Sequence record: NC_049395.1
Strand: one strand, 5' to 3'
Length of the DNA: 30,584 nucleotides
From: Escherichia phage ESSI2_ev015
Position numbers and translations under genes: made by a program. Below, piece after piece: positions 17,257-30,230 of this stretch; position 1 is the first letter of the stretch; every line of letters starts with the position of its first letter. Below the pieces are notes generated by a model. The model was not told the origin of the DNA, ran no database searches, and saw nothing but the letters and a program-made list of their open reading frames with translations.

Positions 17257-19032
17257 ATGGCTAAATACTCTGAAGAATTAAAAGGCGTTGTTCGCGCACT
17301 TTATCTGCGCCGCTATACGCCAAAGGAAATCGCATCTGAATTAAATCTGCCGAATGCGCGGATCGTTTACTACTGGGCGGAGAAATACAGCTGGGCGGAT
17401 TTGCTCAGTTTTGAAAGCACAGAGGAAGCAATTGAACGCCGTTACCAGCTGCTGGCCAGCCGCGATAACAAAACCGATCTCGACCTGAAAGAAATGGACA
17501 TGCTCATTGCTCATGCCACGAAACTGCGTGCGCAGAGTAATAAACACAAAGAGAAAATGGCCAGCGGTCAGAATTCAGGGCAAGCAGCTGTGCGGGACAA
17601 GAATGACGACGAACCGCGCAGCAAACGGAAATACAAGAAAAACGATATTTCCTCGCTGACGCAGGAGGACTTTGACGCATGGGCTGAGGAACATCTTTTT
17701 GAATATCAGAAACACCTGCGCAATAACATTGGCCAGCTTGTCAGGAATATCCTGAAAAGCCGCCAGATCGGTGCAACCTGGTATTTTGCGTTTGAAGCGT
17801 TTGAAAACGCGGTGATGACCGGCGATCCGCAAATCTTTCTGTCAGCATCAAAGGCTCAGGCTGAAGTGTTCCGGTCTTACATCGTGAATATTGCAGAGCA
17901 GTATTTCGGTATTACGCTGACCGGCAACCCGATCCGCTTAAGCAACGGCGCAGAACTGCGTTTTCTCTCCACCAACAAAAACACCGCCCAGTCCTACAGT
18001 GGCCACCTGTACTGTGACGAATATTTCTGGGTGCCAAACTTTGCAAAACTTAACGAAGTGGCCAGCGCAATGGCCACACATGACAAGTGGCGCACCACCT
18101 ATTTTTCAACGCCATCGGCAAAAACGCACCAGGCGTACCCGTTCTGGACGGGCGATGAGTGGAAACAGGGCAGTAAAAAACGTGCGGCCATTAAATTTCC
18201 GTCCTTTAACGAAATGCGTGACGGCGGGCGACTCTGCCCGGATGGGCAATGGCGCTACGTCATTACGATGGAAGATGCCATTGCAGGCGGTTTCAACCTG
18301 GCAAACATCGAAAAGCTTCGCAACCGCTACAACGACGCCACTTTTAACATGCTCTATATGTGCGTGTTCGTTGACAGCAAAGATTCCGTTTTCAGCTTTT
18401 CCGACCTGGAAGCCTGCGGCGTTGAAGTCGACACCTGGCAGGATCACAACCCTGATGCAGCCCGTCCATTCGGTGACAGGGCAGTGTGGGGCGGCTTTGA
18501 CCCGGCTCGCAGCGGGGATTTGTCCTGTTTTGTCATCATCGCCCCGCCGATGCTCGCCGTGGAGAAGTTCCGCGTTCTGAAGGTGATTTACTGGAAAGGC
18601 ATGAACTTCCGGTACCAGGCAAAACAGATCGAGCAGTTGTTCAAAAAATATAACTTCACTTATCTGGGGGTGGACGTTACCGGCATTGGCCAGGGTGTTT
18701 TTGACAACATTCAGCATTTTGCCATGCGTGTGGCCGTCCCTATTCGTTACGACCTGAACACCAAAAATAAGCTGGTACTGAAAGCGGTGGATGTGGTGGA
18801 AAGCCAGCGTATTGAGTGGGATAAAAACCTGAAAGAGATCGCGGCCAGCTTTATGTCTGTGCGCCGAACCACCACACAAAGCGGCAACGCCATGACGTTT
18901 GTCGCTGACCGCAGCCAGGATACCGGCCACGCAGAGGCATTCTGGGCGATTACCCACGGTCTGCATAACGAACCCCTTAACTATGAAAACAAACCGAAAT
19001 CCCGCTGGGGTGTAAGGAAAGAGGCAGCATGA
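17257..19032 (+). CDS. P: Terminase large (ATPase) subunit, gpP-like
   Basis: 591 aa (P2 gpP is about this size), followed by portal with ATGA overlap; divergent from O as in P2. Confidence 0.85.
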   Translation: MAKYSEELKGVVRALYLRRYTPKEIASELNLPNARIVYYWAEKYSWADLLSFESTEEAIERRYQLLASRDNKTDLDLKEMDMLIAHATKLRAQSNKHKEKMASGQNSGQAAVRDKNDDEPRSKRKYKKNDISSLTQEDFDAWAEEHLFEYQKHLRNNIGQLVRNILKSRQIGATWYFAFEAFENAVMTGDPQIFLSASKAQAEVFRSYIVNIAEQYFGITLTGNPIRLSNGAELRFLSTNKNTAQSYSGHLYCDEYFWVPNFAKLNEVASAMATHDKWRTTYFSTPSAKTHQAYPFWTGDEWKQGSKKRAAIKFPSFNEMRDGGRLCPDGQWRYVITMEDAIAGGFNLANIEKLRNRYNDATFNMLYMCVFVDSKDSVFSFSDLEACGVEVDTWQDHNPDAARPFGDRAVWGGFDPARSGDLSCFVIIAPPMLAVEKFRVLKVIYWKGMNFRYQAKQIEQLFKKYNFTYLGVDVTGIGQGVFDNIQHFAMRVAVPIRYDLNTKNKLVLKAVDVVESQRIEWDKNLKEIAASFMSVRRTTTQSGNAMTFVADRSQDTGHAEAFWAITHGLHNEPLNYENKPKSRWGVRKEAA

Positions 19033-20090
19033 GTAAAAAGAAACGCTTTGTTAAGCGCGACCAGCGCGGCGACAAATCAAAAAAGATGAGCATTATCACA
19101 TTCGGCAAACCTGAACCGGTTCTGACTACCGGCACAGATTACCGTGATATCTGGTACGACAATGCCGCCGATCACTTCACCCAGCCGATTGACCGGCTGG
19201 CACTCGCACAACTGATTAATCTTAACGGTCAGCACGGCGGCATCATTCACGCCCGTAAAAACATGATTGTTTCAGACTACCAGGGGGGCGGGCTTATTCA
19301 CGACCAGCTGGAAGCGGCAGCGTTTGACTATATAACCTTTGGGGATATTGCGATTGCCAAAATTCGTAACGGCTGGGGCGATGTGATCGCACTTGAACCC
19401 TTGCCCGGTCTGTATATTCGCCGCCGCAAAGTCAGAGATAACGCGCTGGATAAGCCCGGCGACTACGTGGTGTTACAGGAAGGGGAACCACAGGTATGGC
19501 CAGAAGAAGATATTATCTTCATCAAAATGTATGACCCGCAACAGCATATCTACGGACTGCCGGACTACATCGGCGGTGTGCATTCCGCGTTACTTAACAG
19601 TGAAGCGGTCATTTTCCGACGCCGCTATTACCACAACGGTGCGCACACTGGCGGTATTCTTTATACCCGCGATCCCAGCATGACGGACGAAATGGAGGAA
19701 GAAATTGAACAGCAGCTGCGTGACAGCAAAGGGATCGGTAACTTCTCCACCATCCTTGTAAACATTCCTGGTGGAGACGGTGACGCCATCAAATTCATTG
19801 AAATGGGGGATATTTCCGCGAAGGATGAATTTGCCAACATCAAAAACATCAGCGCCCAGGACATTCTGAACGCGCACCGTTTCCCTGCTGGCCTCGCCGG
19901 TATTGTTCCGCAGAACACTGCCGGACTGGGGGATGTTGAAAAGGCTGAACGCATTTACAAGAAAAGCGAAATAGCCCCCATCCAGCGCCGTTTCATGCTG
20001 GCCGTTAACAACGATCCCGAAATACCGGAAAGGCTACACCTTAACTTTGATTTAAGTTACACAGAATCAACGGATAAGGGTGCGGCATGA
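19029..20090 (+). CDS. Q: Portal protein, gpQ-like
   Basis: 353 aa immediately after P with AAGGAAAGAGG Shine-Dalgarno; size and position match the P2 portal. Confidence 0.8.
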   Translation: MSKKKRFVKRDQRGDKSKKMSIITFGKPEPVLTTGTDYRDIWYDNAADHFTQPIDRLALAQLINLNGQHGGIIHARKNMIVSDYQGGGLIHDQLEAAAFDYITFGDIAIAKIRNGWGDVIALEPLPGLYIRRRKVRDNALDKPGDYVVLQEGEPQVWPEEDIIFIKMYDPQQHIYGLPDYIGGVHSALLNSEAVIFRRRYYHNGAHTGGILYTRDPSMTDEMEEEIEQQLRDSKGIGNFSTILVNIPGGDGDAIKFIEMGDISAKDEFANIKNISAQDILNAHRFPAGLAGIVPQNTAGLGDVEKAERIYKKSEIAPIQRRFMLAVNNDPEIPERLHLNFDLSYTESTDKGAA

Positions 20091-20140
20091 GGCGAAACAG
20101 GCTAAAATCCAGGCATCATTTAACAGCTGGAGCATGGAAT

Positions 20141-20410
20141 ATGCGAGTTCTGAAAATCGAATGCCCGGAATGCGGCTCAAAGGCTGTTATTCGTAAAACG
20201 AACAGGAAGCACCGGCAGATTGCGGATATTTACTGCGCCTGTTCAGATGTTGAGTGTGGCCATACGTTTGTTATGAATCTGACGTTCTCCCACACTCTCA
20301 GCCCCAGCGCTAAAACGGGTGATGCGATGGTGCAAAAAATACTGAATGCACTTTCACCCGATCAGCGCCAGATGGCATTAGACCTATTGAAAGCGACTCC
20401 CGCCGCCTGA
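20141..20410 (+). CDS. ogr: Ogr/Delta-family zinc-finger late transcription activator
   Basis: C-P-E-C ... 22 residues ... C-A-C-S-D-V-E-C-G-H-T-F matches the Ogr/Delta C2C2 arrangement. Start placed at ATG 20141 (MRVLKIECPECG, GGAG Shine-Dalgarno); an upstream in-frame ATG at 20087 overlapping the Q stop is an alternative. Confidence 0.6.
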   Translation: MRVLKIECPECGSKAVIRKTNRKHRQIADIYCACSDVECGHTFVMNLTFSHTLSPSAKTGDAMVQKILNALSPDQRQMALDLLKATPAA

Positions 20411-20414
20411 AATG

Positions 20415-20439
20415 CCCCCATTACTGGGGGTTTTGTTTT
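20415..20439 (+). terminator. Rho-independent terminator after the P-Q-ogr transcript
   Basis: Hairpin CCCCCA-ttac-TGGGGG (6-bp stem) followed by TTTTGTTTT, 5 nt after the ogr stop. Confidence 0.6.
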
Positions 20440-20717
20440 CATACTCATCAAGCTTACTTTCCAGATCTGAAGTCAGTTCGCTCAGCCAGGCAAGTGCTAT
20501 GTCTTTCTCACAGCCGGTGCAATTACTTTTAGCTATAAGCCTTGTAAACAACGCAATCCGCTGCAATGCGATAGTTTCCAAAAACAAATCCTGCACAAGC
20601 ATCCTCCCAAAAACAGAATAACTGTATATAAACACAGTATACATTTAAGCACAAAATGTGAAAGTGCTTTTTCCTGCCATCTACTGACAAATGAATGCCT
20701 TTCACATACTTACACCA

Positions 20718-22739
20718 CTACAACCACCCCGGCCACAGCTCCTGTAATGGCTCGTTTTGAGTCTCTTTAAGCCGCCCGTTGCGGTATATCAGTGCGCCCT
20801 GACCAAATATCAAACCACTACCCCGCAGGAGAATGGCTATTTCTTCATCAGAACCATCAAAACCCCGACTGCGTAATTCCAGTTTTAACCGTCTGCGGGT
20901 TCCCCCCTCCGTACAGTTATTGACAGAACTCCAAGGGGCGGCGTTGCCGCCAGAAAACCCCGCCTCCGCTGGCGCTTCGGCCAACTTCGCAACCTTTTGC
21001 CACTTAACCAGACGGGTGCAAACTTCTGAATCAGGAACCAAAGGAGAATAAACACCCTGTACGCGCTGCACGTCCTCCGCGTATTCGTTGCCTTGTTCCG
21101 TAATTTCATAGGCCAGACGAACAACCAGATCTCGGCGGGCAACCAGTGCACCTCCCTGCGCCTGGGTATATGCAGCCCAGTCCCCGACATCAGCAGCGGC
21201 CAGAACCGCATCCATTCTGCGATCTGTCAGTACCTGATCCCGCAAACGACGCAGCTCACGCCAGACGGTTACCGGCGCACCACCAATCTGCTGAAACTGG
21301 CGAATACGCCAGCGTGAAGCCCACGCGGAAACGGACTTAGCCATATCACGCAGGTTTTCGCCGGTTTCTTCGTCCTGCTCACCATCCAGCGCAAAACCAT
21401 CAATATTTTTTGAAATGTATTTCGCGATGTAGCCCGTGGCCGAACCTTTGGCGGGATCGATAGCTTCAACATGAAAACGCGCCTTCAGCGCCTTTTCAGA
21501 TTGCAGTTCTTCAGAATCGGTAATTCTGGCGTGATAGCAAAGAATATCGCGTACCGTGTCCACGTCCTGCGGACGCATAAAAAGCAACATATGCCAGTGC
21601 GGTGTCCCGTCATGGTGAGGCTCAACAACCCGAAACCCAAAGACATGAATACCCGCACGCGAGATCGCTGCGCGTGCTTTTGCCCATACGCCGCATAAAT
21701 AGCGCTGGGTATCCTGCGGCGTACATCCATCCCATTGCGATACAAAGCCACCTTTGCTGTGTACTGCGTGGAAACGTGATGGCGCAGTGATGGTGTAAAA
21801 CTCACCGGCCAGCCCTTCTTCATTGGCCATATCTTCAAACCCCCGCATTCTTACCATTAGTTCACATCGACGGATCGCCGGATTTGCAACGCTGCGGTGC
21901 ACCATGCTGTCCAGTGCAATGCGCAGCCCCTCATCATTCAGCAGATCAAACTTTTTAAAGAACTCCAGATTCCGCTTTTTCTGGTCTATCCATTCGCCCA
22001 GTGTTTTGCGGGATACATAAGCGCTGGCCGCTTTTTGTACCTGTCCCACCGCGATGGCCATATGTTCGCGCTGTGTATCACGCGCACGTTTAAGACGCAG
22101 GTACCACCATTCTGGCGCCATCATGCGCAGTATCCCTGATTCCGCCTTACGCATTTCCAGTTGGCCTTCATTGGCTTCGTGTTCAGCCCAGTACGGCGGC
22201 TGGTTATTCAGCATCAGGCAACACGCACAAAGATGGCGGTATGATTCCAGGGTGCGGCGGTGCAGCTCTCTGGCGTCGTCAGTGCCGGAATCAAACTGTT
22301 CGGTGAAGTCATAAAGTGACTGGGAAATCCAGCCAGATACCTGGCCAGCCAGTTTTTTAAGATCAGGACGGTCCAGTGACGGCAAGCGCTCCAGCGACTT
22401 ACCAAAAGGAAGATCAGCAGCGTCAGCGGCCAGCGAGTAACGCGCAGCCACTTTGCGCAGACGTGGCAATACACTCCCGCCGATAGTCTGGCGCAGGAAT
22501 GTATTGGCACGGCGACGCCCGTCACGACCAGCAAACAGCTTTTCGTAACGACGGCCAAAATACCCGGCTAACCAGTCGGGTATCTCATGAAGGTACTGTG
22601 AGCGCCATTCGTAATCCTGCGGGTTAACCGCCCACAGGCGGCGCTCGGTGATCGTGGCGTCTGTAGGCGTACCCGGTGCGAACGTTTCACGCCGCCAGGT
22701 ATCGACGGCGTGATGTTGGCCATTGGCGACAGGAGTCAT
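20718..22739 (-). CDS. A: Replication initiation endonuclease, gpA-like (rolling-circle, HUH-type)
   Basis: 673 aa; contains H-W-H-M-L-L-F (histidine-hydrophobic-histidine) motif; last large gene of the early operon as in P2/186. Confidence 0.8.
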   Translation of the reverse strand: MTPVANGQHHAVDTWRRETFAPGTPTDATITERRLWAVNPQDYEWRSQYLHEIPDWLAGYFGRRYEKLFAGRDGRRRANTFLRQTIGGSVLPRLRKVAARYSLAADAADLPFGKSLERLPSLDRPDLKKLAGQVSGWISQSLYDFTEQFDSGTDDARELHRRTLESYRHLCACCLMLNNQPPYWAEHEANEGQLEMRKAESGILRMMAPEWWYLRLKRARDTQREHMAIAVGQVQKAASAYVSRKTLGEWIDQKKRNLEFFKKFDLLNDEGLRIALDSMVHRSVANPAIRRCELMVRMRGFEDMANEEGLAGEFYTITAPSRFHAVHSKGGFVSQWDGCTPQDTQRYLCGVWAKARAAISRAGIHVFGFRVVEPHHDGTPHWHMLLFMRPQDVDTVRDILCYHARITDSEELQSEKALKARFHVEAIDPAKGSATGYIAKYISKNIDGFALDGEQDEETGENLRDMAKSVSAWASRWRIRQFQQIGGAPVTVWRELRRLRDQVLTDRRMDAVLAAADVGDWAAYTQAQGGALVARRDLVVRLAYEITEQGNEYAEDVQRVQGVYSPLVPDSEVCTRLVKWQKVAKLAEAPAEAGFSGGNAAPWSSVNNCTEGGTRRRLKLELRSRGFDGSDEEIAILLRGSGLIFGQGALIYRNGRLKETQNEPLQELWPGWL

Positions 22740-23596
22740 GCGCAGGCCATCGCTATAGAATCAATCGGCGACTTCAGAATTAACTCTGCGGCAACTTTCT
22801 GGCTTGCAGCTGCGGCACCAACACTACGCGGGGCATTAATGCGAACGGCTTCAAATCCGGCGTACAGGTAATGCACCATTTCCAGATCGGCATTAGAGGC
22901 CACAACCGGCACACCTTTTCTGGCCAGACGGCGCAACTTACGCGCCAGCCTCCCCTGATCCATGTGCGAAAAACCGCGCTCATGGTAAGCGGTGAAATTG
23001 TCGCTTTCAGTCAGATAAGGCGGATCACAGTAAACAACGTCATTCCCGTCCCGAACCAAATCGAGCGTTTCTGAATAGTGGGCAGTAATGAACGTTGCGC
23101 GTTTTGCTTTTTCAGCAAAGGCGCGGATTTCATCAGCGGGGAAATAAGGCTTTTTGTACTTACCGAACGGGACGTTGAACTGGCCTCGACGGTTATACCG
23201 GCACAGACCATTGAAGCAGTGCCGGTTCAGGTACAGGAAACGCGCAGCAGCTTCTACAGATTCCGAACCAAAGGATTTACCTGACTGGTTGAAAGCATCC
23301 CGCACAGCATAATAGAAAACTGCGCGGCTTTCTTCATCACCTAACGAACCGGCAGTAAACAGACTTTCCAGCTCATTGAGCAGCGCATCAGTGTGATACG
23401 CCATCGCCTTATAAAGATTAACCAGATCAGGATTCACATCTGCGATCAGATACTCGTCATAATCCGTATTCATCATGACGGCGCAGGAACCTGCGAACGG
23501 CTCAACCAGGCGTTTACCTTCTGGAAGGTGCGGACGCAGCTTAGGCATAAGGCGGGCTTTGCTACCCACCCATTTAAGCGGAGTTTTAACGGCCAT
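22736..23596 (-). CDS. dam: DNA adenine methyltransferase (Dam-like, GATC-type)
   Basis: Track start is TTG; ATG at 23596 with GGAGGT Shine-Dalgarno. DPPY catalytic motif and a long block ([33 protein letters not shown]) closely matching my recollection of E. coli Dam. Confidence 0.8.
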
Positions 23597-23915
23597 AATG
23601 ACCTCCGCCAACTAACGACTCTGTTACACCGTTTGAAATGATGTATTCCAGCACTTCAAGCGGTGACAGCGAACGGATAGATAAAACCACCCAATTTTCG
23701 GTATCAGCGATGATTTCATTCACCGGCAACACATGGGTGATAACTGCCGCCCACTCTCGCCCGGTGTATTTCCCGTGCTTCCACTCGCACAATGAAAGAA
23801 CATCACCGGTTTTATACCCGCGATCATTTTTACGCAGTTCGGCCTTTTTCTGGCCAGCCACCACAGCATCAAGGTATTTCGGCGCAATTTTTACCGCATG
23901 GATTTTGATTATCAT
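23586..23915 (-). CDS. ASCH/DUF3850-like small protein
   Basis: ~109 aa from ATG 23915 ([32 protein letters not shown]...), ATGA overlap with exonuclease stop; resembles ASCH/PUA-like fold proteins. Family from memory. Confidence 0.45.
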
Positions 23916-24508
23916 TTTGCACCGCCTTGCGCTAAAGCTTTGATGACACCTAATGTCATTTTGCAATCAGCTAAAGCACGGTGTGCCTTCCCCTCGATCA
24001 CAACTCCTTCATGCGCGGCGGCATCAACTAACTTATGCCATTTATAACCGTGATATTTCCCCGGCTCGCCACGATATTCTGCATATAGTTTCATTGCGCA
24101 AACAGAATGAGCAGCAAGCATCCATGGCGCACCTTCAGAAGGTCTTCCATTCAATGCGTAGGTCTGACGAATTAACCGGAGATCATAATCGGCGTTATAG
24201 ATAACAAAGCCAAAACGTCTAATAAGTTCTTCCACTGCGCCGCATATATCTGTCCACGCAGGAGCATAGGCAACCATTTCATTTGTGATCCCATGAATGG
24301 CAATTGCTTCATCAGGAATAGGCTTAGTAGGTTTAACAAGCGTGTTAAGCAGAATAAATCCATGGCTATCAATGATGCATATTTCTACTATTTCTGCATC
24401 ATCACCCAGCCCCGTGGTTTCGGTATCAATAAATAGGCGATTATCGTCAAGCCACTGTTGTGCTAACAGGCTGATAGAATACTTCAATTGCTTAGTATTC
24501 AATTCCAT
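23912..24508 (-). CDS. 3'-5' exonuclease, DEDD/DnaQ-like
   Basis: Track start is TTG; ATG at 24508 with AAGGAGGT Shine-Dalgarno; Exo I motif FIDTETTGL near the N-terminus. Confidence 0.7.
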
Positions 24509-24732
24509 GCTGCACCTCCTTTGCTGCAAATCGCCGCTGCTTCTTCGCGGATCAACTCAACGATTTCCGTTGCGCTTAAACCTTCATTGGCCGCATGAGT
24601 GGCCAACTTATCCAGACGGGTGGAACACAGATCAGCAGCTGCGGCTTTACCTTCCTGCGTGGCTTTGGTGAGCATGGCCAGCAGGTCGGTGCCTGATTTT
24701 GTTGCGGGTAAATCCTGACGTGTCATGTGCAT
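24499..24732 (-). CDS. Hypothetical early protein (77 aa)
   Basis: ATG with AAGGAAA Shine-Dalgarno; Ala-rich helical; overlaps the exonuclease start by ~10 nt. Confidence 0.45.
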   Translation of the reverse strand: MHMTRQDLPATKSGTDLLAMLTKATQEGKAAAADLCSTRLDKLATHAANEGLSATEIVELIREEAAAICSKGGAAWN

Positions 24733-24799
24733 TTTGGTTTCCTTAAGGCAAAAGAATCCCCGGCCACTTGAACCGTGGCCAAAAAATTCAGGCTGTTAA

Positions 24800-25201
24800 T
24801 TAGTGAAAAGTGGGTTGTACTGTGGCGGCTGAGTAGTTCGGTGCCGGAATCAGGTGAAGCTCATAGGTTGTCCGCCACCACTCCTGGATCAGCGCTTTTA
24901 TCTCGCCAACACCCAGCGCCCCGGCTGTATAGAAAATTGCACGAATCCCCGCCAGCGCTTCTATCTGGGCTTCTTTGCTTTCCGCTTCGCGATACACGCA
25001 GCACCAGAAAGCGGCATTGATCGCCAGCCAGTGACGCGGATTTGTCATGTGTTCAGTGTCATTGAAGAAGAACGGATGCAAAGCGATGCGGCCATTTTTA
25101 CTGGTACTTTTCGCTGCAAACGCTACAGCGTAGTTATGCGGGACACCCCACACAGCCAGTTCAGCCCCCAACGATTTACCCTCAACGGAAATAATGGTCA
25201 T
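24800..25201 (-). CDS. Hypothetical early protein (133 aa)
   Basis: ATG with AGGGGAA Shine-Dalgarno; start overlaps the stop of the upstream ORF by 1 nt. Confidence 0.45.
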   Translation of the reverse strand: MTIISVEGKSLGAELAVWGVPHNYAVAFAAKSTSKNGRIALHPFFFNDTEHMTNPRHWLAINAAFWCCVYREAESKEAQIEALAGIRAIFYTAGALGVGEIKALIQEWWRTTYELHLIPAPNYSAATVQPTFH

Positions 25202-25629
25202 TAGTGATTCCCCTGTTGCTGGAACTTATGGACGATATGAGGCGCGATCACCATCTGCACCCCGCTACTGCTATAAATTGGATGTGCCTTTTTGATCGGG
25301 CGGTTCGCGGTGCGCTTTGAAAAATCGCTGTCACGTAAACTGCCGAAACCTTCAAACGTTAACCGCGCCCGTGAAATGCCCTGGCGCAGTTGAATCATGT
25401 CCCGATAGCCCAGGCGTTCATAAAGCTCCCGCCAGCAGCACTTGCTTAAGTGGGCTTTAAATGCCCCGGTACCAGATGTAACCGCAGCAGCATGAAGCAC
25501 TACACCCCGCCACTCTGGTGTTAAGTTGTCCCACCATTCAGCGGCCTCACTGCTTTCGCTGAAGTATTTGCGGCGGATCTGTTTTAAATGCTCCAGCCCG
25601 CGCTTTTGCTGTTCCTGGCTAATCGCCAT
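25201..25629 (-). CDS. Hypothetical early protein (~142 aa; track shows a 207-aa GTG-initiated version)
   Basis: First ATG of the track ORF is at 25629 (MAISQEQQKRG...) with AGGGGG Shine-Dalgarno; the 65-codon N-terminal extension starts at GTG and overlaps a better-supported small ORF in another frame. Confidence 0.4.
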   Translation of the reverse strand: MAISQEQQKRGLEHLKQIRRKYFSESSEAAEWWDNLTPEWRGVVLHAAAVTSGTGAFKAHLSKCCWRELYERLGYRDMIQLRQGISRARLTFEGFGSLRDSDFSKRTANRPIKKAHPIYSSSGVQMVIAPHIVHKFQQQGNH

Positions 25630-25637
25630 AACGCCCC

Positions 25638-25811
25638 CTATAACCCCATCAGACGACGCCACCACGGGCGGCGCGGCTGCTGGCCATTGAATTTGTACAT
25701 GTGGCCAGGGTTCCAGCGCTGACCGTTCGGCAGTTCTATCCAGCCCGTTGAACCACTCGGCAACTGCATGGCTGGTGATTCTTTTTTCAGGTAAGTCACA
25801 AACGCTTTCAT
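25638..25811 (-). CDS. Small ORF (57 aa) immediately downstream of cII, absent from the ORF track
   Basis: ATG ~10 nt after the cII stop with GAGGGAA Shine-Dalgarno; MKAFVTYLKKESPAMQLPSGSTGWIELPNGQRWNPGHMYKFNGQQPRRPWWRRLMGL; its TAG stop is 9 nt before the next ATG. Below the track's 60-aa cutoff. Confidence 0.4.
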   Translation of the reverse strand: MKAFVTYLKKESPAMQLPSGSTGWIELPNGQRWNPGHMYKFNGQQPRRPWWRRLMGL

Positions 25812-25820
25812 GGTGTTCCC

Positions 25821-26324
25821 TCACATCAGGCCGGTGGCATTGGTTGTGACCAAATCCACCGCAGCGGCCAGAACCGGCGCAGAGTGAATACGGCTTTCAA
25901 CGGTATAAGCCAGAACGGATAAGCTACGGATTGCATCGCGGGCGCGATCCAGAATTTGAGTACGGCGGGCGGCGGTCATATGGCCAGTTGATACGGCTTC
26001 CCCAGCAATCGCGCCTACACACGCAGTGGCGCTAAGCGCACACAACTGCATGTTGGCTTCAGTGGCATTGTTCACCGGCACGGATGGAAGGCAGTTAATC
26101 TGACCTAACATCCCATCAAGTAAACGCGCATCCTCGGTGTAATCCGTGATAGCCAAAAGCTCATCACAGGTTAAGCGGTGCGGTTGTGCTGGGTTCAGTT
26201 TGTTGCGCAGGATCTGCGACTTCATACCAACGGCTGCGGCCACATCTTCAAGATTGTGCTCAGTTGCAAATGCTCGGCAAGCCGCATCAAAGTGCGCATG
26301 TTTAGAGGTCTGGTAATCAAACAT
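25821..26324 (-). CDS. cII: CII-like lysogeny establishment regulator (186 CII-like)
   Basis: 167 aa (186 CII is about this size as I recall), second gene of the early lytic operon after the Apl/Cox-like gene; AGGGAGAGG Shine-Dalgarno. Confidence 0.55.
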   Translation of the reverse strand: MFDYQTSKHAHFDAACRAFATEHNLEDVAAAVGMKSQILRNKLNPAQPHRLTCDELLAITDYTEDARLLDGMLGQINCLPSVPVNNATEANMQLCALSATACVGAIAGEAVSTGHMTAARRTQILDRARDAIRSLSVLAYTVESRIHSAPVLAAAVDLVTTNATGLM

Positions 26325-26354
26325 TGTTTGCCTCTCCCTAATCCGTAGGATGGA

Positions 26355-26576
26355 TTACGCGTTAAGCGAAATATTGCATTCGCTTAACGCTTCAACGGTC
26401 AGAGCGGCCATGTTTATTTCCACACGGCCTTTAGGCATTTCTCCTTTGCCACGAATAGGCAGACGGCCATCCCGGATCATGTCACGGGCTGTGCTTTCAG
26501 CTGTATTCGTTAATTTGCACCACTCTTTAAGTGGTAGATAAGGGGCTGGGATGGTGATTGTAATGTTAGGACGCAT
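26355..26576 (-). CDS. Apl/Cox-like small HTH protein (excision/switch regulator)
   Basis: 73 aa, first gene of the early operon, divergent from the repressor; helix-turn-helix-like segment KEWCKLTNTAESTARDMIRDGRLP. Confidence 0.5.
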   Translation of the reverse strand: MRPNITITIPAPYLPLKEWCKLTNTAESTARDMIRDGRLPIRGKGEMPKGRVEINMAALTVEALSECNISLNA

Positions 26577-26710
26577 AAGGCAAACTCCCGTATTCGGTTG
26601 AATGCAGCAACATTCAACAACATTCGATTTAAACTACAACACGGAGAGACTCTACTTCGACTTAATCGAGAAATCAACAGTATTTCGATTTAATCGAGAG
26701 AGCTAGCGAT
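26577..26710. promoter_or_regulatory. Immunity switch region (divergent early/lysogenic promoters and operators)
   Basis: 134-bp intergenic region between divergent apl-like and cI-like genes; three copies of TTCGAYTTAA (26623, 26656, 26684), two extended to 16-bp repeats TTCGA(C/T)TTAATCGAGA with near-palindromic core; tandem 10-bp repeat CAACATTC(A/G)A at 26608-26627. Confidence 0.5.
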
Positions 26711-27298
26711 ATGAGCAAATTCCCTTTTGAGCAGATAGGGCACAGCAGCGACGTGCTTGATCGAGTAGTAGAGGCTTACGGCTTCACTTCAAAGCTACAG
26801 CTTGCGGAACATTTCGATATGGCCTCAAGTAGCCTTTCCGCAAGGTTTAAACGAGGAATATTCCCGGCTGATATGGTGGTTCGCTGCGTAGCAGAAACCG
26901 GGGCGTCTCTTGAGTGGCTATCTACTGGCCAGGGGAAGAAATTCGATGATGATCAGTTAGACATCATGAAATTTCCCCGTAAAAAATTAGTTGATGGCCA
27001 GCTCTATGACTCTGGTTACGCAATGTTCGATAAAGTTTTTTTCAGGGCAGGAGCGCCACTCCCCGCAGCACCTTTCTGCGTACTAGATGAAAAAGCGCAG
27101 TACATCCTAGACCAGAAATTTTCCGAGGTTTTTGATGGCGAATGGCTGGTAAATATCGAAGGAAAAACCAGTATCAGAACGCTGACACGCATCCCGGTAA
27201 AAAAGGTACGCGTCAGTGGTGTTGGCATGGCTTTTGACTGTGGGCTGGAAGATATCGAAATTATCGGCCGCGTGGTCATGACGATAACAAACGCATAA
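26711..27298 (+). CDS. cI: CI-like immunity repressor
   Basis: 195 aa (186 CI is ~192 aa as I recall), immediately upstream of and overlapping int (TAATG); divergent from the early operon. Confidence 0.6.
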   Translation: MSKFPFEQIGHSSDVLDRVVEAYGFTSKLQLAEHFDMASSSLSARFKRGIFPADMVVRCVAETGASLEWLSTGQGKKFDDDQLDIMKFPRKKLVDGQLYDSGYAMFDKVFFRAGAPLPAAPFCVLDEKAQYILDQKFSEVFDGEWLVNIEGKTSIRTLTRIPVKKVRVSGVGMAFDCGLEDIEIIGRVVMTITNA

Positions 27299-28359
27299 TG
27301 GGCATCAGAAAACAGCCGGACGGGAAATGGTTGCTGGACTTTTACCCGGAAGGAAAACCCCAGGGAAAAGCCAGCAAGCGCATCCGCAAGACGTTCTCCA
27401 CCAAAGGCGAGGCGCTAGCCTACCAAAATCACATTATGGAAAACGTCCATGTAAAGCCCTGGCTTGACGGTAAAGAGGATCGGAGAAAGCTACGCGACTT
27501 AGTAAACCAATGGTTCGATGAACATGGTGTGACGCTTGACGATGGCGAAAAACGTAAAGGCGCAATGGAATTTGCGTGTCAAAGCATGGGTGATCCGCTG
27601 GCGCATGAATTTGACGCCACGATGTTTTCGCTTTATCGCAAAAAACGTTTATCCGGTGAAATATCCAGAACAGCGCGTGTAAAACAAGTCGCTCCCAGAA
27701 CCATGAATTTAGAACTGGCCTATTTTCGTGCCGTGTTTAATGAGCTTAAGCGCTTAGGACATTGGAAATCTGAAAACCCCCTGTCTAACGTTCGCCCCTT
27801 TAAATCTGAGGAAGCTGAACTGGCTTATTTGGAACATGATGAAATCGAACGATTGTTATCCGAATGTTCGAAAAGTCGAAACGCCAGCACTTACTGGGTT
27901 GCATGTTTATGCCTGATAACCGGCGCTCGCTGGGATGAAGCGGAATCATTAACGACTAAGCAAATCAGAAACCTAAAAGTCAGCTTTTTTAAAACTAAAG
28001 GGAACAGGAACAGAACTGTTCCAATCAGCCAGGACTTTTATGACGCATTGCCGAAACCAGAAAAACCAGGGCGTTTTTTTACACCCTGCTATTCGGCCTT
28101 TCGCAAAGCCGTAGAGCGTGCGGAACTCGACTTACCTGATGGCCAATTGTCACATGTGCTACGACACACTTTCGCCAGTCACTTTATGATGAACGGCGGG
28201 AACATTCTGGTTTTAAAAGAGATACTGGGACACACTGACATTAAAATGACCATGCGTTACGCGCATTTCGCTCCAAGCCATTTGCAGGAAGCCATAACGC
28301 TAAACCCTTTGGGACAAAATGCCCCTTTTCTGTCCCCTCAGGACTCAAACATCCAATAA
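27298..28359 (+). CDS. int: Tyrosine-type integrase
   Basis: 353 aa; C-terminal catalytic region HVLRHTFASHFMMNGGNILVLKEILGHTDIKMTMRYAHF (R...H-x-x-R...Y signature); adjacent to the att core. Confidence 0.9.
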   Translation: MGIRKQPDGKWLLDFYPEGKPQGKASKRIRKTFSTKGEALAYQNHIMENVHVKPWLDGKEDRRKLRDLVNQWFDEHGVTLDDGEKRKGAMEFACQSMGDPLAHEFDATMFSLYRKKRLSGEISRTARVKQVAPRTMNLELAYFRAVFNELKRLGHWKSENPLSNVRPFKSEEAELAYLEHDEIERLLSECSKSRNASTYWVACLCLITGARWDEAESLTTKQIRNLKVSFFKTKGNRNRTVPISQDFYDALPKPEKPGRFFTPCYSAFRKAVERAELDLPDGQLSHVLRHTFASHFMMNGGNILVLKEILGHTDIKMTMRYAHFAPSHLQEAITLNPLGQNAPFLSPQDSNIQ

Positions 28360-28531: not shown

Positions 28532-28695
28532 GTTTATAGTGGTCAGTGTCCCCTTTTTGTCCCCTCACTTTCACCCACACTCATCTATACCTCAGTTGTT
28601 AGCACTTCACCGAACCATGACGATTGAACGCTTTGCGCTTTTTTTACATACTGTTTCAATCTCATTTGCCAATAATTTTTAGTCAGGATGACAAT

Positions 28696-29322
28696 ATGAC
28701 TTCGTACAATGAACTGAAAGAATGTATCCGCCTTGAAGTCATTGGCCATGACAAATCCTTTTCATGGCGTAAAGCGTTACTTCGTACCCGACGCAACCAG
28801 AAGAAGCACTTCCTGTTCTGGTGGCGTATTGCTTCATGGCTCTATGCCCAGAATAGTAAGTTCAAAAAGCGCATTGCCCGCAGGATTGAAAACCGCCTCA
28901 AGTACCGGCACAGCGTTGATATTTCGCTGTCATGCAAAATCGGCAAGGGTTTAAACATTGCTCATCTAAACGGCATTGTGATTACTGACAATTGCGTGAT
29001 TGGTGATTTCGCCGACCTGAAGCAAGGCATCACCATAGGGTTACGCACCGACAGTGCCGACGCGATGATAGTCATTGGTGATCGTGTTGATATTGGCTGT
29101 AACTCGTCCATTCTGGGCGGCAAGGTTACGATCGGAAACAATGTCACCATTGGTGCGCATTCGCTAGTGCTTCAGAACATCCCCAGCGACACCGTTTATA
29201 AAAACAAGATCACGCCAGTGTATACATCCAAACTACCGCAGACGGAATATCAGGAAAAGCAGCCTTTTGTCACTGGCAATGCGACAAAAGAAGCGTCCCG
29301 TTCCGCAGAAGCAGTGCTGTAA
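28696..29322 (+). CDS. Hexapeptide-repeat acetyltransferase, serine acetyltransferase (CysE/WcaB)-like
   Basis: Track start is TTG; ATG at 28696 with AGGATGA upstream. Left-handed beta-helix hexapeptide repeats (IGKGLNIAHLNGIVITDNCVIGDFADLKQGITIG...) preceded by a WRIASWLY-type helix as in the CysE family; low-GC region. Confidence 0.65.
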   Translation: MTSYNELKECIRLEVIGHDKSFSWRKALLRTRRNQKKHFLFWWRIASWLYAQNSKFKKRIARRIENRLKYRHSVDISLSCKIGKGLNIAHLNGIVITDNCVIGDFADLKQGITIGLRTDSADAMIVIGDRVDIGCNSSILGGKVTIGNNVTIGAHSLVLQNIPSDTVYKNKITPVYTSKLPQTEYQEKQPFVTGNATKEASRSAEAVL

Positions 29323-29531: not shown

Positions 29532-29846
29532 ATGAACTTAAACAATAACCCTACAGTAAGCCAACTCTCACAACTAATCTCTGTTTGCGACGATAACGCA
29601 GGTCATCATATTCTTTGGGTATCTAAATCTGGCGATGTAGCAGTTACACAAATAAATGATTTGTCTCCAATTGGCTTTGAAGAAAACACCCCATCAATGG
29701 CAATGCGTTATGAAACTTTCCAACGTGGAAATGACTATGTTGGAAAAAATGCAGCAGAAGATGCAACTCACATGGAAAGACTACTTAGAGATTTGCTAAA
29801 CGAATGGCCATTATATAACGGCAATCGTGTACGGTACATTGGCTAA
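29532..29846 (+). CDS. Hypothetical protein (104 aa), first gene of an AT-rich two-gene cassette
   Basis: ATG with AAGAGG Shine-Dalgarno; AT-rich codon usage distinct from the prophage; no recognisable motif. Confidence 0.5.
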   Translation: MNLNNNPTVSQLSQLISVCDDNAGHHILWVSKSGDVAVTQINDLSPIGFEENTPSMAMRYETFQRGNDYVGKNAAEDATHMERLLRDLLNEWPLYNGNRVRYIG

Positions 29847-29861: not shown

Positions 29862-30230
29862 ATGGCAACCAATTGTTATGTAAGAGTTTTAGATAATAAC
29901 ACTAAACGTGTCTATGATGTTGGGCCATTTATTAATAGCGGTAATGAGGCCTTCTCTGGAGCAGATAGCGCCATAAATTGGATTTACAAACAAATTGGCT
30001 TAGTCAAAATACAATATCCAGAATCAACTTTAATAAAGCATAAATGGGATTATGTTAAAGATGATTTTTATGGCCCTACTGCTGATGTAAAAGTTGAAAT
30101 ATCAAACTTTATTTTTGAGATTTTTAAACTGCTACCTGCTGACACTCAAAATGTAATTAATGAACAAATTACAGATAATTTGCCCACATGGTACAAAGAT
30201 GAAAAAGAAAGTCATATTGATGAAAATTGA
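29862..30230 (+). CDS. Hypothetical protein (122 aa), second gene of the AT-rich cassette
   Basis: ATG 15 nt after the upstream stop with AAGGTGG Shine-Dalgarno; no recognisable motif. Confidence 0.5.
   Translation: MATNCYVRVLDNNTKRVYDVGPFINSGNEAFSGADSAINWIYKQIGLVKIQYPESTLIKHKWDYVKDDFYGPTADVKVEISNFIFEIFKLLPADTQNVINEQITDNLPTWYKDEKESHIDEN

Follow-up and report, generated by a model that had tools for sequence, protein, structure and literature searches.

Phages 186 and P2 place a row of small open reading frames (ORFs) in front of replication gene A. Re-scanning their ORFs for domains gives, for 186 (U32222), the terminator tR1, DUF2732 (Orf79), TraR (Orf80), an exonuclease (Orf81), DUF5405 (Orf83), a PAPS-reductase-like protein (Orf84) and A, and for P2 (AF063097) a terminator, DUF2732, DUF5405, TraR, DUF5405, A and DUF3850 (Orf91). 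The 186 GenBank record annotates Orf79-Orf84 as 'not essential' and tR1 as anti-terminated, and states that 'translation to end of orf84 appears necessary for translation of A protein'. Here we compare with these operons the window, a stretch of 30,584 nt of Escherichia phage ESSI2_ev015 (NC_049395.1) to whose full length all coordinates refer, in which genes for an exonuclease, a DUF3850/ASCH protein and a Dam-family DNA methyltransferase lie directly 5' of gene A. The locus has the features of a distal early operon of the 186/P2 type, namely a terminator, then DUF2732, ORFs that overlap one another and, last before A, an ORF running into the A start, by ATGA as in 186. The exonuclease is orthologous to 186 Orf81 (72.7% identity), and the junction motif AAAGGCGGTGCAGCATGA follows the exonuclease gene in both phages; the initial annotation's view of a 186-like phage is right. 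Unlike 186, the window has DUF3850 and Dam in place of TraR (Orf80), DUF5405 (Orf83) and the PAPS-reductase-like Orf84, it lacks a TraR gene, and a search inside gene A found no recognisable counterpart of the terminator tM1, which enforces coupling in 186. With P2 (Orf80-81-82-83-A-Orf91) it shares the terminator, DUF2732, small coupled ORFs and A, and Orf91 is a DUF3850 protein 48% identical to that of the window; in P2, however, the DUF3850 gene stands after A, overlapping the A stop, and there is no Dam and no exonuclease.

We favour, at a probability of roughly 0.6, the reading that the three genes are independent, individually dispensable accessory cargo carried where the distal early-lytic operon of 186-like Peduoviridae is variable, chained because the whole operon would be one translationally coupled polycistron. 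The initial annotation had seen in them a compact module with a joint role. That proposal is not supported by comparison with relatives, in which the genes occur apart, with no co-occurrence signal among 75 species-level loci; not one of these holds exonuclease, DUF3850 and Dam together.

Gene order and junctions upstream of gene A

Five minus-strand genes follow one another in the window, in the 5' to 3' order DUF2732, exonuclease, DUF3850/ASCH, Dam and replication gene A (Table 1), and Pfam and PHROG scans agree with all domain calls in the chain. The overlaps are 10 nt at DUF2732/exonuclease, 4 nt (ATGA) at exonuclease/ASCH, 11 nt at ASCH/Dam and 4 nt (ATGA) at Dam/A. The initial annotation had described Dam, an ASCH-like protein and a DEDD exonuclease as chained by overlapping stops and starts at 22736-24508 and as lying directly upstream of A; by the ORF list and the sequence this is correct to the base, since 22736-24508 begins exactly with the Dam stop codon and ends with the exonuclease ATG, the Dam/A overlap places the block beside A, and the three domain assignments hold. 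One more gene belongs at the 5' side of the chain, as DUF2732 overlaps the exonuclease start. Identical gene boundaries are annotated in RefSeq for Escherichia phage ESSI2_ev040 (NC_049393), and in a 10.5-kb stretch of that phage seven of the ten co-directional junctions overlap, so the chaining is real yet unexceptional, the normal state for such an operon and no statistical anomaly.

Table 1. Features of the gene chain and its junctions, in window coordinates and in order of transcription
Feature	Position	Strand	Basis
tR1-like terminator hairpin, 11-bp stem, then GGGGATTCTTTTGCC	24757..24785	-	scan; aligned with 186 tR1 and the P2 putative terminator
DUF2732 gene, first of the chain; homolog of 186 Orf79 and P2 Orf80	24499..24732	-	PF10809 2.8e-12; own Shine-Dalgarno (SD) sequence AAGGAAACCAAAATG
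Junction AAGGAGGTGCAGCATG, exonuclease SD within the last DUF2732 codons	24506..24521	-	exact pattern match
DEDDh 3'-5' exonuclease, 198 aa, ortholog of phage 186 Orf81 (CP81)	23912..24508	-	PF00929 1e-18, residues 25-187
Junction AAGGCGGTGCAAAATG(A), exonuclease/DUF3850 ATGA overlap	23913..23928	-	exact pattern match
DUF3850/ASCH (PUA-like beta-barrel) protein, 109 aa, P2 Orf91 homolog	23586..23915	-	PF12961 6.2e-23, PF04266 3.7e-5
Junction GGCGGAGGTCATTATG, Dam SD within the last DUF3850 codons, 11-nt overlap	23594..23609	-	junction listing
Orphan Dam-family N6-adenine DNA methyltransferase, 286 aa	22736..23596	-	PF02086 1.4e-66; ATG at 23596, MAVKTPLKW...
Replication gene A, rolling-circle initiator	20718..22739	-	PF05840 6.7e-105
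Slot with DNA-modification genes; also in L029, L071, L002, L178, L187, L190, L214, L217, L218, L230, L242, L261	22736..24732		

The hairpin just 5' of the chain matches 186 tR1 and the P2 terminator in sequence and in position, before the DUF2732 genes, and together with its T-rich tail it marks the start of the putatively coupled DUF2732-to-A unit. A scan of 20500-27000 for sigma-70 promoters and terminators found no block-internal signals beyond chance, a result of little weight as the expected early promoter was missed too.

At the DUF2732/exonuclease, exonuclease/DUF3850 and DUF3850/Dam junctions an SD is embedded in the final codons of the gene before. The gene boundaries share the consensus A(A/C)GG(A/C/T)GGTGC-N3-4-ATG, which holds the C-terminal ...K/Q-G-G-A codons of one protein and the SD for the next gene, and this element recurs in 186, P2, SEN8 and ev129, with occurrences at loci L178, L179, L180, L002 and L011. 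One surveyed relative, L003, with flanks ~95% identical to the window, is precisely without exonuclease and DUF3850, and its junction is a hybrid of the left half of the window's DUF2732/exonuclease junction and the right half of its DUF3850/Dam junction. The hybrid argues that cassettes are gained or lost in register at these boundaries; at least one gain or loss of exonuclease plus DUF3850 took place in this way.

At the Dam/A junction (gcgatggcctgcgcATGAct) the ATG of gene A overlaps the Dam stop, no SD-like sequence lies upstream, and a hairpin over the A start codon is too weak to rely on (RNA folding, z = -2.4). From the ATGA overlap and the absent SD we infer that gene A of the window would depend on upstream translation. 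In 53 of 78 close and 28 of 68 species-level loci the preceding ORF extends over the A start, whatever it encodes, which together with the 186 annotation supports one coupled DUF2732-to-A unit. Translational coupling, as the initial annotation had it, is thus plausible from the overlapping junctions and the 186 record. It fails as the hallmark of a module, being common to every gene of the distal early operon regardless of what is encoded, and the 186 homolog of the exonuclease is annotated as not essential.

The mechanism we propose follows the operon plan of tR1-like terminator, DUF2732, variable cargo and gene A. Transcription would read through the unit and ribosomes would load at the DUF2732 SD; each next start codon would be served by an SD within the last codons of the upstream gene, in the form A(A/C)GG(A/C)GGTGC-N3-4-ATG, and ribosomes that finish on Dam would be passed at the final ATGA to gene A, which lacks an SD. 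The gene in the last position, whatever its identity, would then also be a translational leader for the replicase.

Assortment of the cargo genes among relatives

Whether the three genes travel together was addressed in three surveys: (i) 78 loci from IMG/VR in which gpA is at least 81% identical, (ii) 79 loci, likewise from IMG/VR, that carry a DUF3850 relative, and (iii) 75 P2-like loci from different species, with gpA 43-86% identical. Among the close relatives of survey (i), DUF2732-Dam-A is the arrangement in 56, DUF3850-Dam in 11, exonuclease-DUF3850-Dam in 5 and exonuclease-Dam in 1, with neither in 5. Survey (ii) gave TraR-DUF3850-Dam in 53 loci and DUF3850-Dam in 14, with an exonuclease in only 8. 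At the species level of survey (iii) the slot holds Dam in 28 loci, a C5 methyltransferase in 8, DUF3850 in 8, DUF5405 in 7 and a PAPS-reductase-like gene in 3, while exonucleases are of the RNase_T type in 2 and of the Rv2179c type in 3. The DUF2732-A interval of these 75 loci contains many combinations of Dam, Dcm, PAPS-reductase-like, DndB, DUF5405, TraR, DUF3850 and the two exonuclease families. Dam is found in 3 of the 8 loci with DUF3850 and in 25 of the 67 without it (Fisher p = 1), and DUF3850 in 0 of the 5 loci with any exonuclease and in 8 of the 70 lacking one (Fisher p = 1). The exonuclease itself is sporadic, at 6/78, 8/79 and 2/75 across the three surveys.

Each gene is also seen without the others. 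Exonuclease and Dam occur without ASCH in SEN8 (TraR-Exo-Dam, no DUF3850) and L082, the exonuclease occurs without ASCH or Dam in 186, and ASCH occurs without Dam in L005, L007 and P2 Orf91; a Yersinia Eganvirus has TraR-Exo-DUF5405-DUF3850 and no Dam, and a paper on 186-type Yersinia phages contains no discussion of these genes. Compared across relatives the block is variable, so the invariance that the initial annotation had named as speaking against its reading is not what is seen. The optional genes keep a single order, DUF2732 < TraR < Exo < DUF3850 < Dam < Dcm/PAPS/membrane ORF < A.

The three proteins and competing explanations

The catalytic and binding motifs one would look for in three such proteins are all present (DPPY, DEDDh and K-x-x-E-x-R). 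Dam scores above the curated cut-offs of PF02086 (225 bits against 22) and TIGR00571 (272 bits against 114.85). Its catalytic DPPY, D191-P-P-Y194, aligns with D181-Y184 of E. coli Dam (2g1p), and its S-adenosylmethionine motif FAGSC (F34-A-G36-S-C38) with F35-V-G37-A-G39, the last Gly of FxGxG having become Cys. K9, N120, L122, R124, N126, P134 and Y138 are kept in the alignment, with Y119 replaced by F and R137 by K. We take these positions to be the GATC contacts of E. coli Dam in the 2G1P structure. No restriction gene is found beside Dam among its neighbours, in the window ORFs or the ev040 annotation, and with no adjoining endonuclease it is to be regarded as an orphan enzyme. It resembles E. 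coli Dam, T4 Dam and P1 Dmt in its D12-class fold, DPPY, conserved GATC-contacting residues and lack of a partner endonuclease. Unlike the close kinship of an ortholog, its identity to E. coli Dam is only 43%, and at 262.6 bits it does not reach the 441-bit cut-off of the NCBIfam host-Dam equivalog NF008152; judged by these scores, it is a Dam-family member and no host-type ortholog.

GATC occurs 129 times in the phage, at an observed/expected ratio of 0.92, and a scan of the window found the sites neither avoided nor clustered at regulatory sites, hence no sign of selection by GATC-specific restriction. Most likely Dam methylates these 129 sites during lytic growth, with a GATC specificity predicted from the alignment. 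Made at that stage, an orphan Dam would fully methylate newly replicated phage DNA, which would protect it from enzymes cutting unmethylated GATC and avoid a hemimethylated state if host Dam is limiting. We know of no packaging role of Dam in cos-type P2-like phages, unlike the case of P1 pac. Orphan Dam enzymes are present in many phages and made upon cell exit, and phages are known to use orphan methyltransferases produced at that stage against restriction and for regulation (PMC12707154).

Family profile score and the PUA-like beta-barrel fold place the second protein in ASCH/DUF3850. Its pocket triad K-x-x-E-x-R consists of K23, E26 and R28, aligned with K21, T24 and R26 of YqfB; the triad residues are at least 90% conserved among 68 diverse members, and H6, K9, D31, R32, D38 and E44 are near-invariant residues particular to the DUF3850 family. 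ASCH proteins characterised by experiment are N4-acetylcytidine (ac4C) amidohydrolases, and Glu at the middle position of the triad defines the TRIP4/EOLA1 clade (bioRxiv 10.64898/2026.08.01.741249). Compared with ASCH proteins such as YqfB and the EOLA1/TRIP4 clade, and with the structural-genomics protein 3IUW, the window's protein belongs to a separate Pfam family, DUF3850, and its similarity to YqfB is marginal; a YqfB-type ac4C amidohydrolase was rejected, given Glu26 for Thr24, at the triad position where the YqfB clade has Thr or Ser, and a phmmer E of 0.16-0.24. From the residues of its TRIP4/EOLA1-type pocket we propose that DUF3850 most likely acts on a modified base, flipped-out or free, by binding or hydrolysing it.

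DUF3850 is a large family, with 5642 clusters at 50% identity, enriched in phages and, like phage methyltransferases, fused to ParB-CTPase folds (bioRxiv 10.1101/2025.10.10.680097). Beyond the P2-like phages its neighbours are unrelated early genes or, in a Klebsiella phage, helicase and primase on either side, and no methyltransferase is nearby; methyltransferase-free contexts comprise P2 (after A), L005, L007, the Yersinia Eganvirus, the Klebsiella phage and four metagenomic phage contigs. Fusion partners in ten long DUF3850 homologs received no Pfam assignment apart from one DpnD/PcfM domain: P0161 (366 aa, metagenomic) joins DUF3850 to a C-terminal DpnD/PcfM-like domain (PF14207, 4.6e-13), and in other long DUF3850 proteins the N- or C-terminal extensions match no Pfam family. 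A DUF3850 protein of Enterococcus phage 53 is annotated 'exonuclease'; no exonuclease domain was found in it, and it consequently offers no Rosetta-stone link between exonuclease and DUF3850.

The exonuclease carries the full DEDDh set, with Exo I D28-x-E30, Exo II D109 in YNADYD and Exo III H176-x4-D181, and scores 68.9 bits against the PF00929 cut-off of 24. Its closest solved relatives are ExoX (4fzx, 1.3e-8) and then Pol III epsilon (2.4e-5), with which it shares complete DEDDh motifs, and it is also related to N15 gene 41. Unlike ExoX and DnaQ (epsilon), which have tethering C-terminal domains, it is a single bare domain (residues 25-187 of 198) with no C-terminal partner- or polymerase-binding extension, and none of the NCBIfam epsilon and ExoX models reaches its cut-off (NF005937, for example, 50.6 against 202). 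A Pol III epsilon-like subunit was rejected on both counts. It would thus be a free-standing 3'-5' DEDDh nuclease, the counterpart of a non-essential protein of 186.

How well do these data separate the cargo reading from its rivals? Several observations weigh against independent cargo. Exonuclease and DUF3850 have been gained or lost jointly, the exonuclease is accompanied by DUF3850 in five of six close-lineage loci of survey (i), and at species level any methyltransferase is present in 4 of 5 loci with any exonuclease and in 25 of 70 lacking one (Fisher p = 0.07). The coupling of A to Dam, the GATC specificity and the three activities are predictions from sequence, and tM1 is missing from the window as far as can be recognised. 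Dam lies directly 3' of DUF3850 in 78 of the 79 loci of survey (ii), and such close-lineage association, like that of exonuclease with DUF3850, fits a functional linkage as well as it fits inheritance and a fixed gene order. One might then imagine a triad in which Dam writes N6-methyladenine (m6A) at GATC, DUF3850/ASCH reads whether a site is unmethylated, hemi- or fully methylated, and an ExoX-like exonuclease degrades or trims the marked DNA, for phage methyl-directed strand processing or for telling phage from host DNA. Its nearest solved relative, ExoX, is one exonuclease of methyl-directed mismatch repair, and the DpnD/PcfM fusion points the same way. Moreover, fusions and operons of ASCH with N6A methyltransferases are recurrent, and ASCH domains have been predicted to be m6A discriminators (Iyer et al. 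2016, PMC4738411). We nevertheless find such a triad quite improbable. The commonest state among close relatives is Dam alone (56/78), DUF3850 and Dam show no association at species level, nor do exonuclease and DUF3850 (0/5), and DUF3850 has no methyltransferase neighbour in the contexts listed above; m6A reading by ASCH was still unconfirmed in 2024 (PMC11037411), and the activity established for characterised members is the ac4C amidohydrolase one. The conserved co-occurrence with an adenine methyltransferase expected of an ASCH m6A reader is not seen for DUF3850 at species level, and the co-occurrence data do not support that prediction. The occurrence of DUF3850 in many combinations and in methyltransferase-free settings argues that the tight DUF3850-Dam adjacency of close relatives is best explained by a fixed order of optional genes plus common descent, for which no obligate partnership is needed.

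The main rival to independent cargo, compatible with the data and in our judgement unlikely, is a hotspot for counter-defence or DNA modification before A, filled with immune-evasion genes that may act separately for one purpose: Dam would mask GATC from restriction, the exonuclease would destroy a nucleic acid or signal of host defence, for example retron multicopy single-stranded DNA (msDNA), oligonucleotide messengers or primed DNA ends, and DUF3850 would sequester or hydrolyse a modified base or nucleotide that a defence system uses or senses. The slot does often hold DNA-modification genes (Dam 28/75, C5 methyltransferase 8/75, PAPS-reductase-like 3/75 and in 186 Orf84, DndB-like in L071), two 3'-5' exonuclease families (PF00929, PF16473) have been recruited to one place, expression is probably from the early operon by analogy, and the phage enrichment and ParB-CTPase-fold fusions of DUF3850 (bioRxiv 10.1101/2025.10.10.680097) would suit such a role. 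Dam and the exonuclease RecE also act on retron msDNA (bioRxiv 10.1101/2020.06.22.160242), but there they trigger defence and do not inhibit it. No recognised anti-defence protein is present; PADLOC returned generic methyltransferase and DEDDh matches only, with no hit for DUF3850; GATC masking would add little in the usual hosts, which are Dam+ themselves; and the P2 defence hotspots that have been published are found across gene A from this slot (PMC9122126). A role in replication fidelity seems distinctly improbable too. There the exonuclease would be an epsilon-like proofreading partner of the host polymerase in gpA-initiated rolling-circle replication, with DUF3850 and Dam aiding replication through, for example, nucleotide pools or rapid remethylation. 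PHROG 192, which the exonuclease matches, is named 'DNA polymerase exonuclease subunit', it is similar to Pol III epsilon (2.4e-5), and the genes sit in a replication operon beside A, with DUF3850 between helicase and primase in the Klebsiella phage and beside gpA throughout P2-like phages. What speaks against it is the bare exonuclease domain, the family models that stay below cut-off, the sporadic occurrence in all three surveys and the annotation of 186 Orf81 as not essential. Independent cargo thus remains the reading we prefer.

The slot, the wider window and significance

Several further genes mark the interval between DUF2732 and A, which resembles a cargo hotspot distinct from the published gpA-gpQ one; the P2 defence hotspots lie on the gpA-gpQ side, opposite the DUF2732-A slot (PMC9122126). 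DNA-modification genes recur in it, namely Dam, C5 methyltransferase, PAPS-reductase-like (including 186 Orf84) and DndB-like genes, and the C5 methyltransferase is nearly always beside Dam (7/8, p = 0.003). The close relatives of survey (i) add four variants: a membrane ORF, a 189-aa protein in the place of the exonuclease, a PAPS-reductase-like gene that follows Dam, and a DndB-like gene that takes the place of Dam. The ORF of ~70 aa with predicted membrane location stands between Dam and gpA in 47 of the 78 loci (L031 5775-5987 and 46 others); the window lacks it, and it matches no Pfam family. The protein of ~189 aa takes the place of the exonuclease between DUF2732 and DUF3850 in L034 (3991-4581), L050 (4238-4828), L097 and L108; read from the first start after the preceding stop, the L034 and L050 ORFs share the same N-terminal stretch, both end in ...GGAK, and neither has a Pfam match above threshold. 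A second, unrelated 3'-5' exonuclease family, PF16473 Rv2179c-like (1.4e-68), occupies the slot of L190, L230, L255 and L261, usually as Exo2-Dam-Dcm, so exonucleases have been recruited there at least twice.

The 2.5 kb around the block are 99.9% identical to ev040 (Peduoviridae, Quadragintavirus), which has the same four genes, 99.4-99.9% identical over the block and annotated there as 'DNA methyltransferase', 'RNA-binding protein', 'DNA polymerase exonuclease subunit' and 'DUF2732'. Unlike the window, ev129 (Quadragintavirus, NC_049394) has a longer exonuclease allele, 52% identical, and an extra C5 methyltransferase between Dam and A. By megablast the block has matches in only 32 of 5426 complete E. 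coli genomes, and 3 of these cover at least 80%. Identity to ev040 spans 18400-25658, falls to 90% over cII and is gone beyond 26324, which makes the window a sibling phage with a different immunity/integrase module. Beyond ~25658 a single 207-aa ORF (GTG start, 25201-25824) stands where ev040 has a hypothetical gene and DUF2724; across 25658-28359 cII is no more than 90% identical, and no nucleotide match to ev040 exists for apl, cI (195 aa) or int (353 aa), with the int start overlapping the cI stop. The immunity/integrase module has been swapped. Downstream of int lie three plus-strand ORFs (28624-29322, 29532-29846 and 29862-30230). By eye, the first (232 aa, TTG start) resembles a hexapeptide-repeat acyltransferase (IGDRVDIGCNSSILGGKVTIGNNVTIGAHSLVL), which would make it possible lysogenic-conversion cargo; at the matching position ev040 carries an abortive-infection family gene.

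The block combines genes in a new way within an operon type that is well known, and a public RefSeq phage genome already has it annotated. It adds one further mosaic to the non-essential early ORFs that were mapped in P2 and 186 from the 1990s on, and its value is modest. What is gained is the recognition of the exonuclease as an ortholog of 186 Orf81 and of the ASCH protein as a homolog of P2 Orf91, along with a comparative picture of gene exchange before the replicase. We are tempted, with considerable doubt, to speculate further that the DUF2732-A segment is an undescribed Peduoviridae cargo hotspot that swaps genes in register through the SD junction, with DUF3850, by its EOLA1-type K-E-R pocket, as a modified-base reader or hydrolase alongside Dam and exonuclease in counter-defence or in the processing of methylated DNA. 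If so, the locus would offer the first experimentally tractable E. coli system for the ASCH-m6A prediction. DUF3850, a very large family that is enriched in phages and whose ASCH-type pocket is conserved, could matter more than the block itself, and the gene preceding A may control translation of the replicase regardless of its identity; both the function of DUF3850 and the coupling to the replicase are directly testable in an inducible coliphage.

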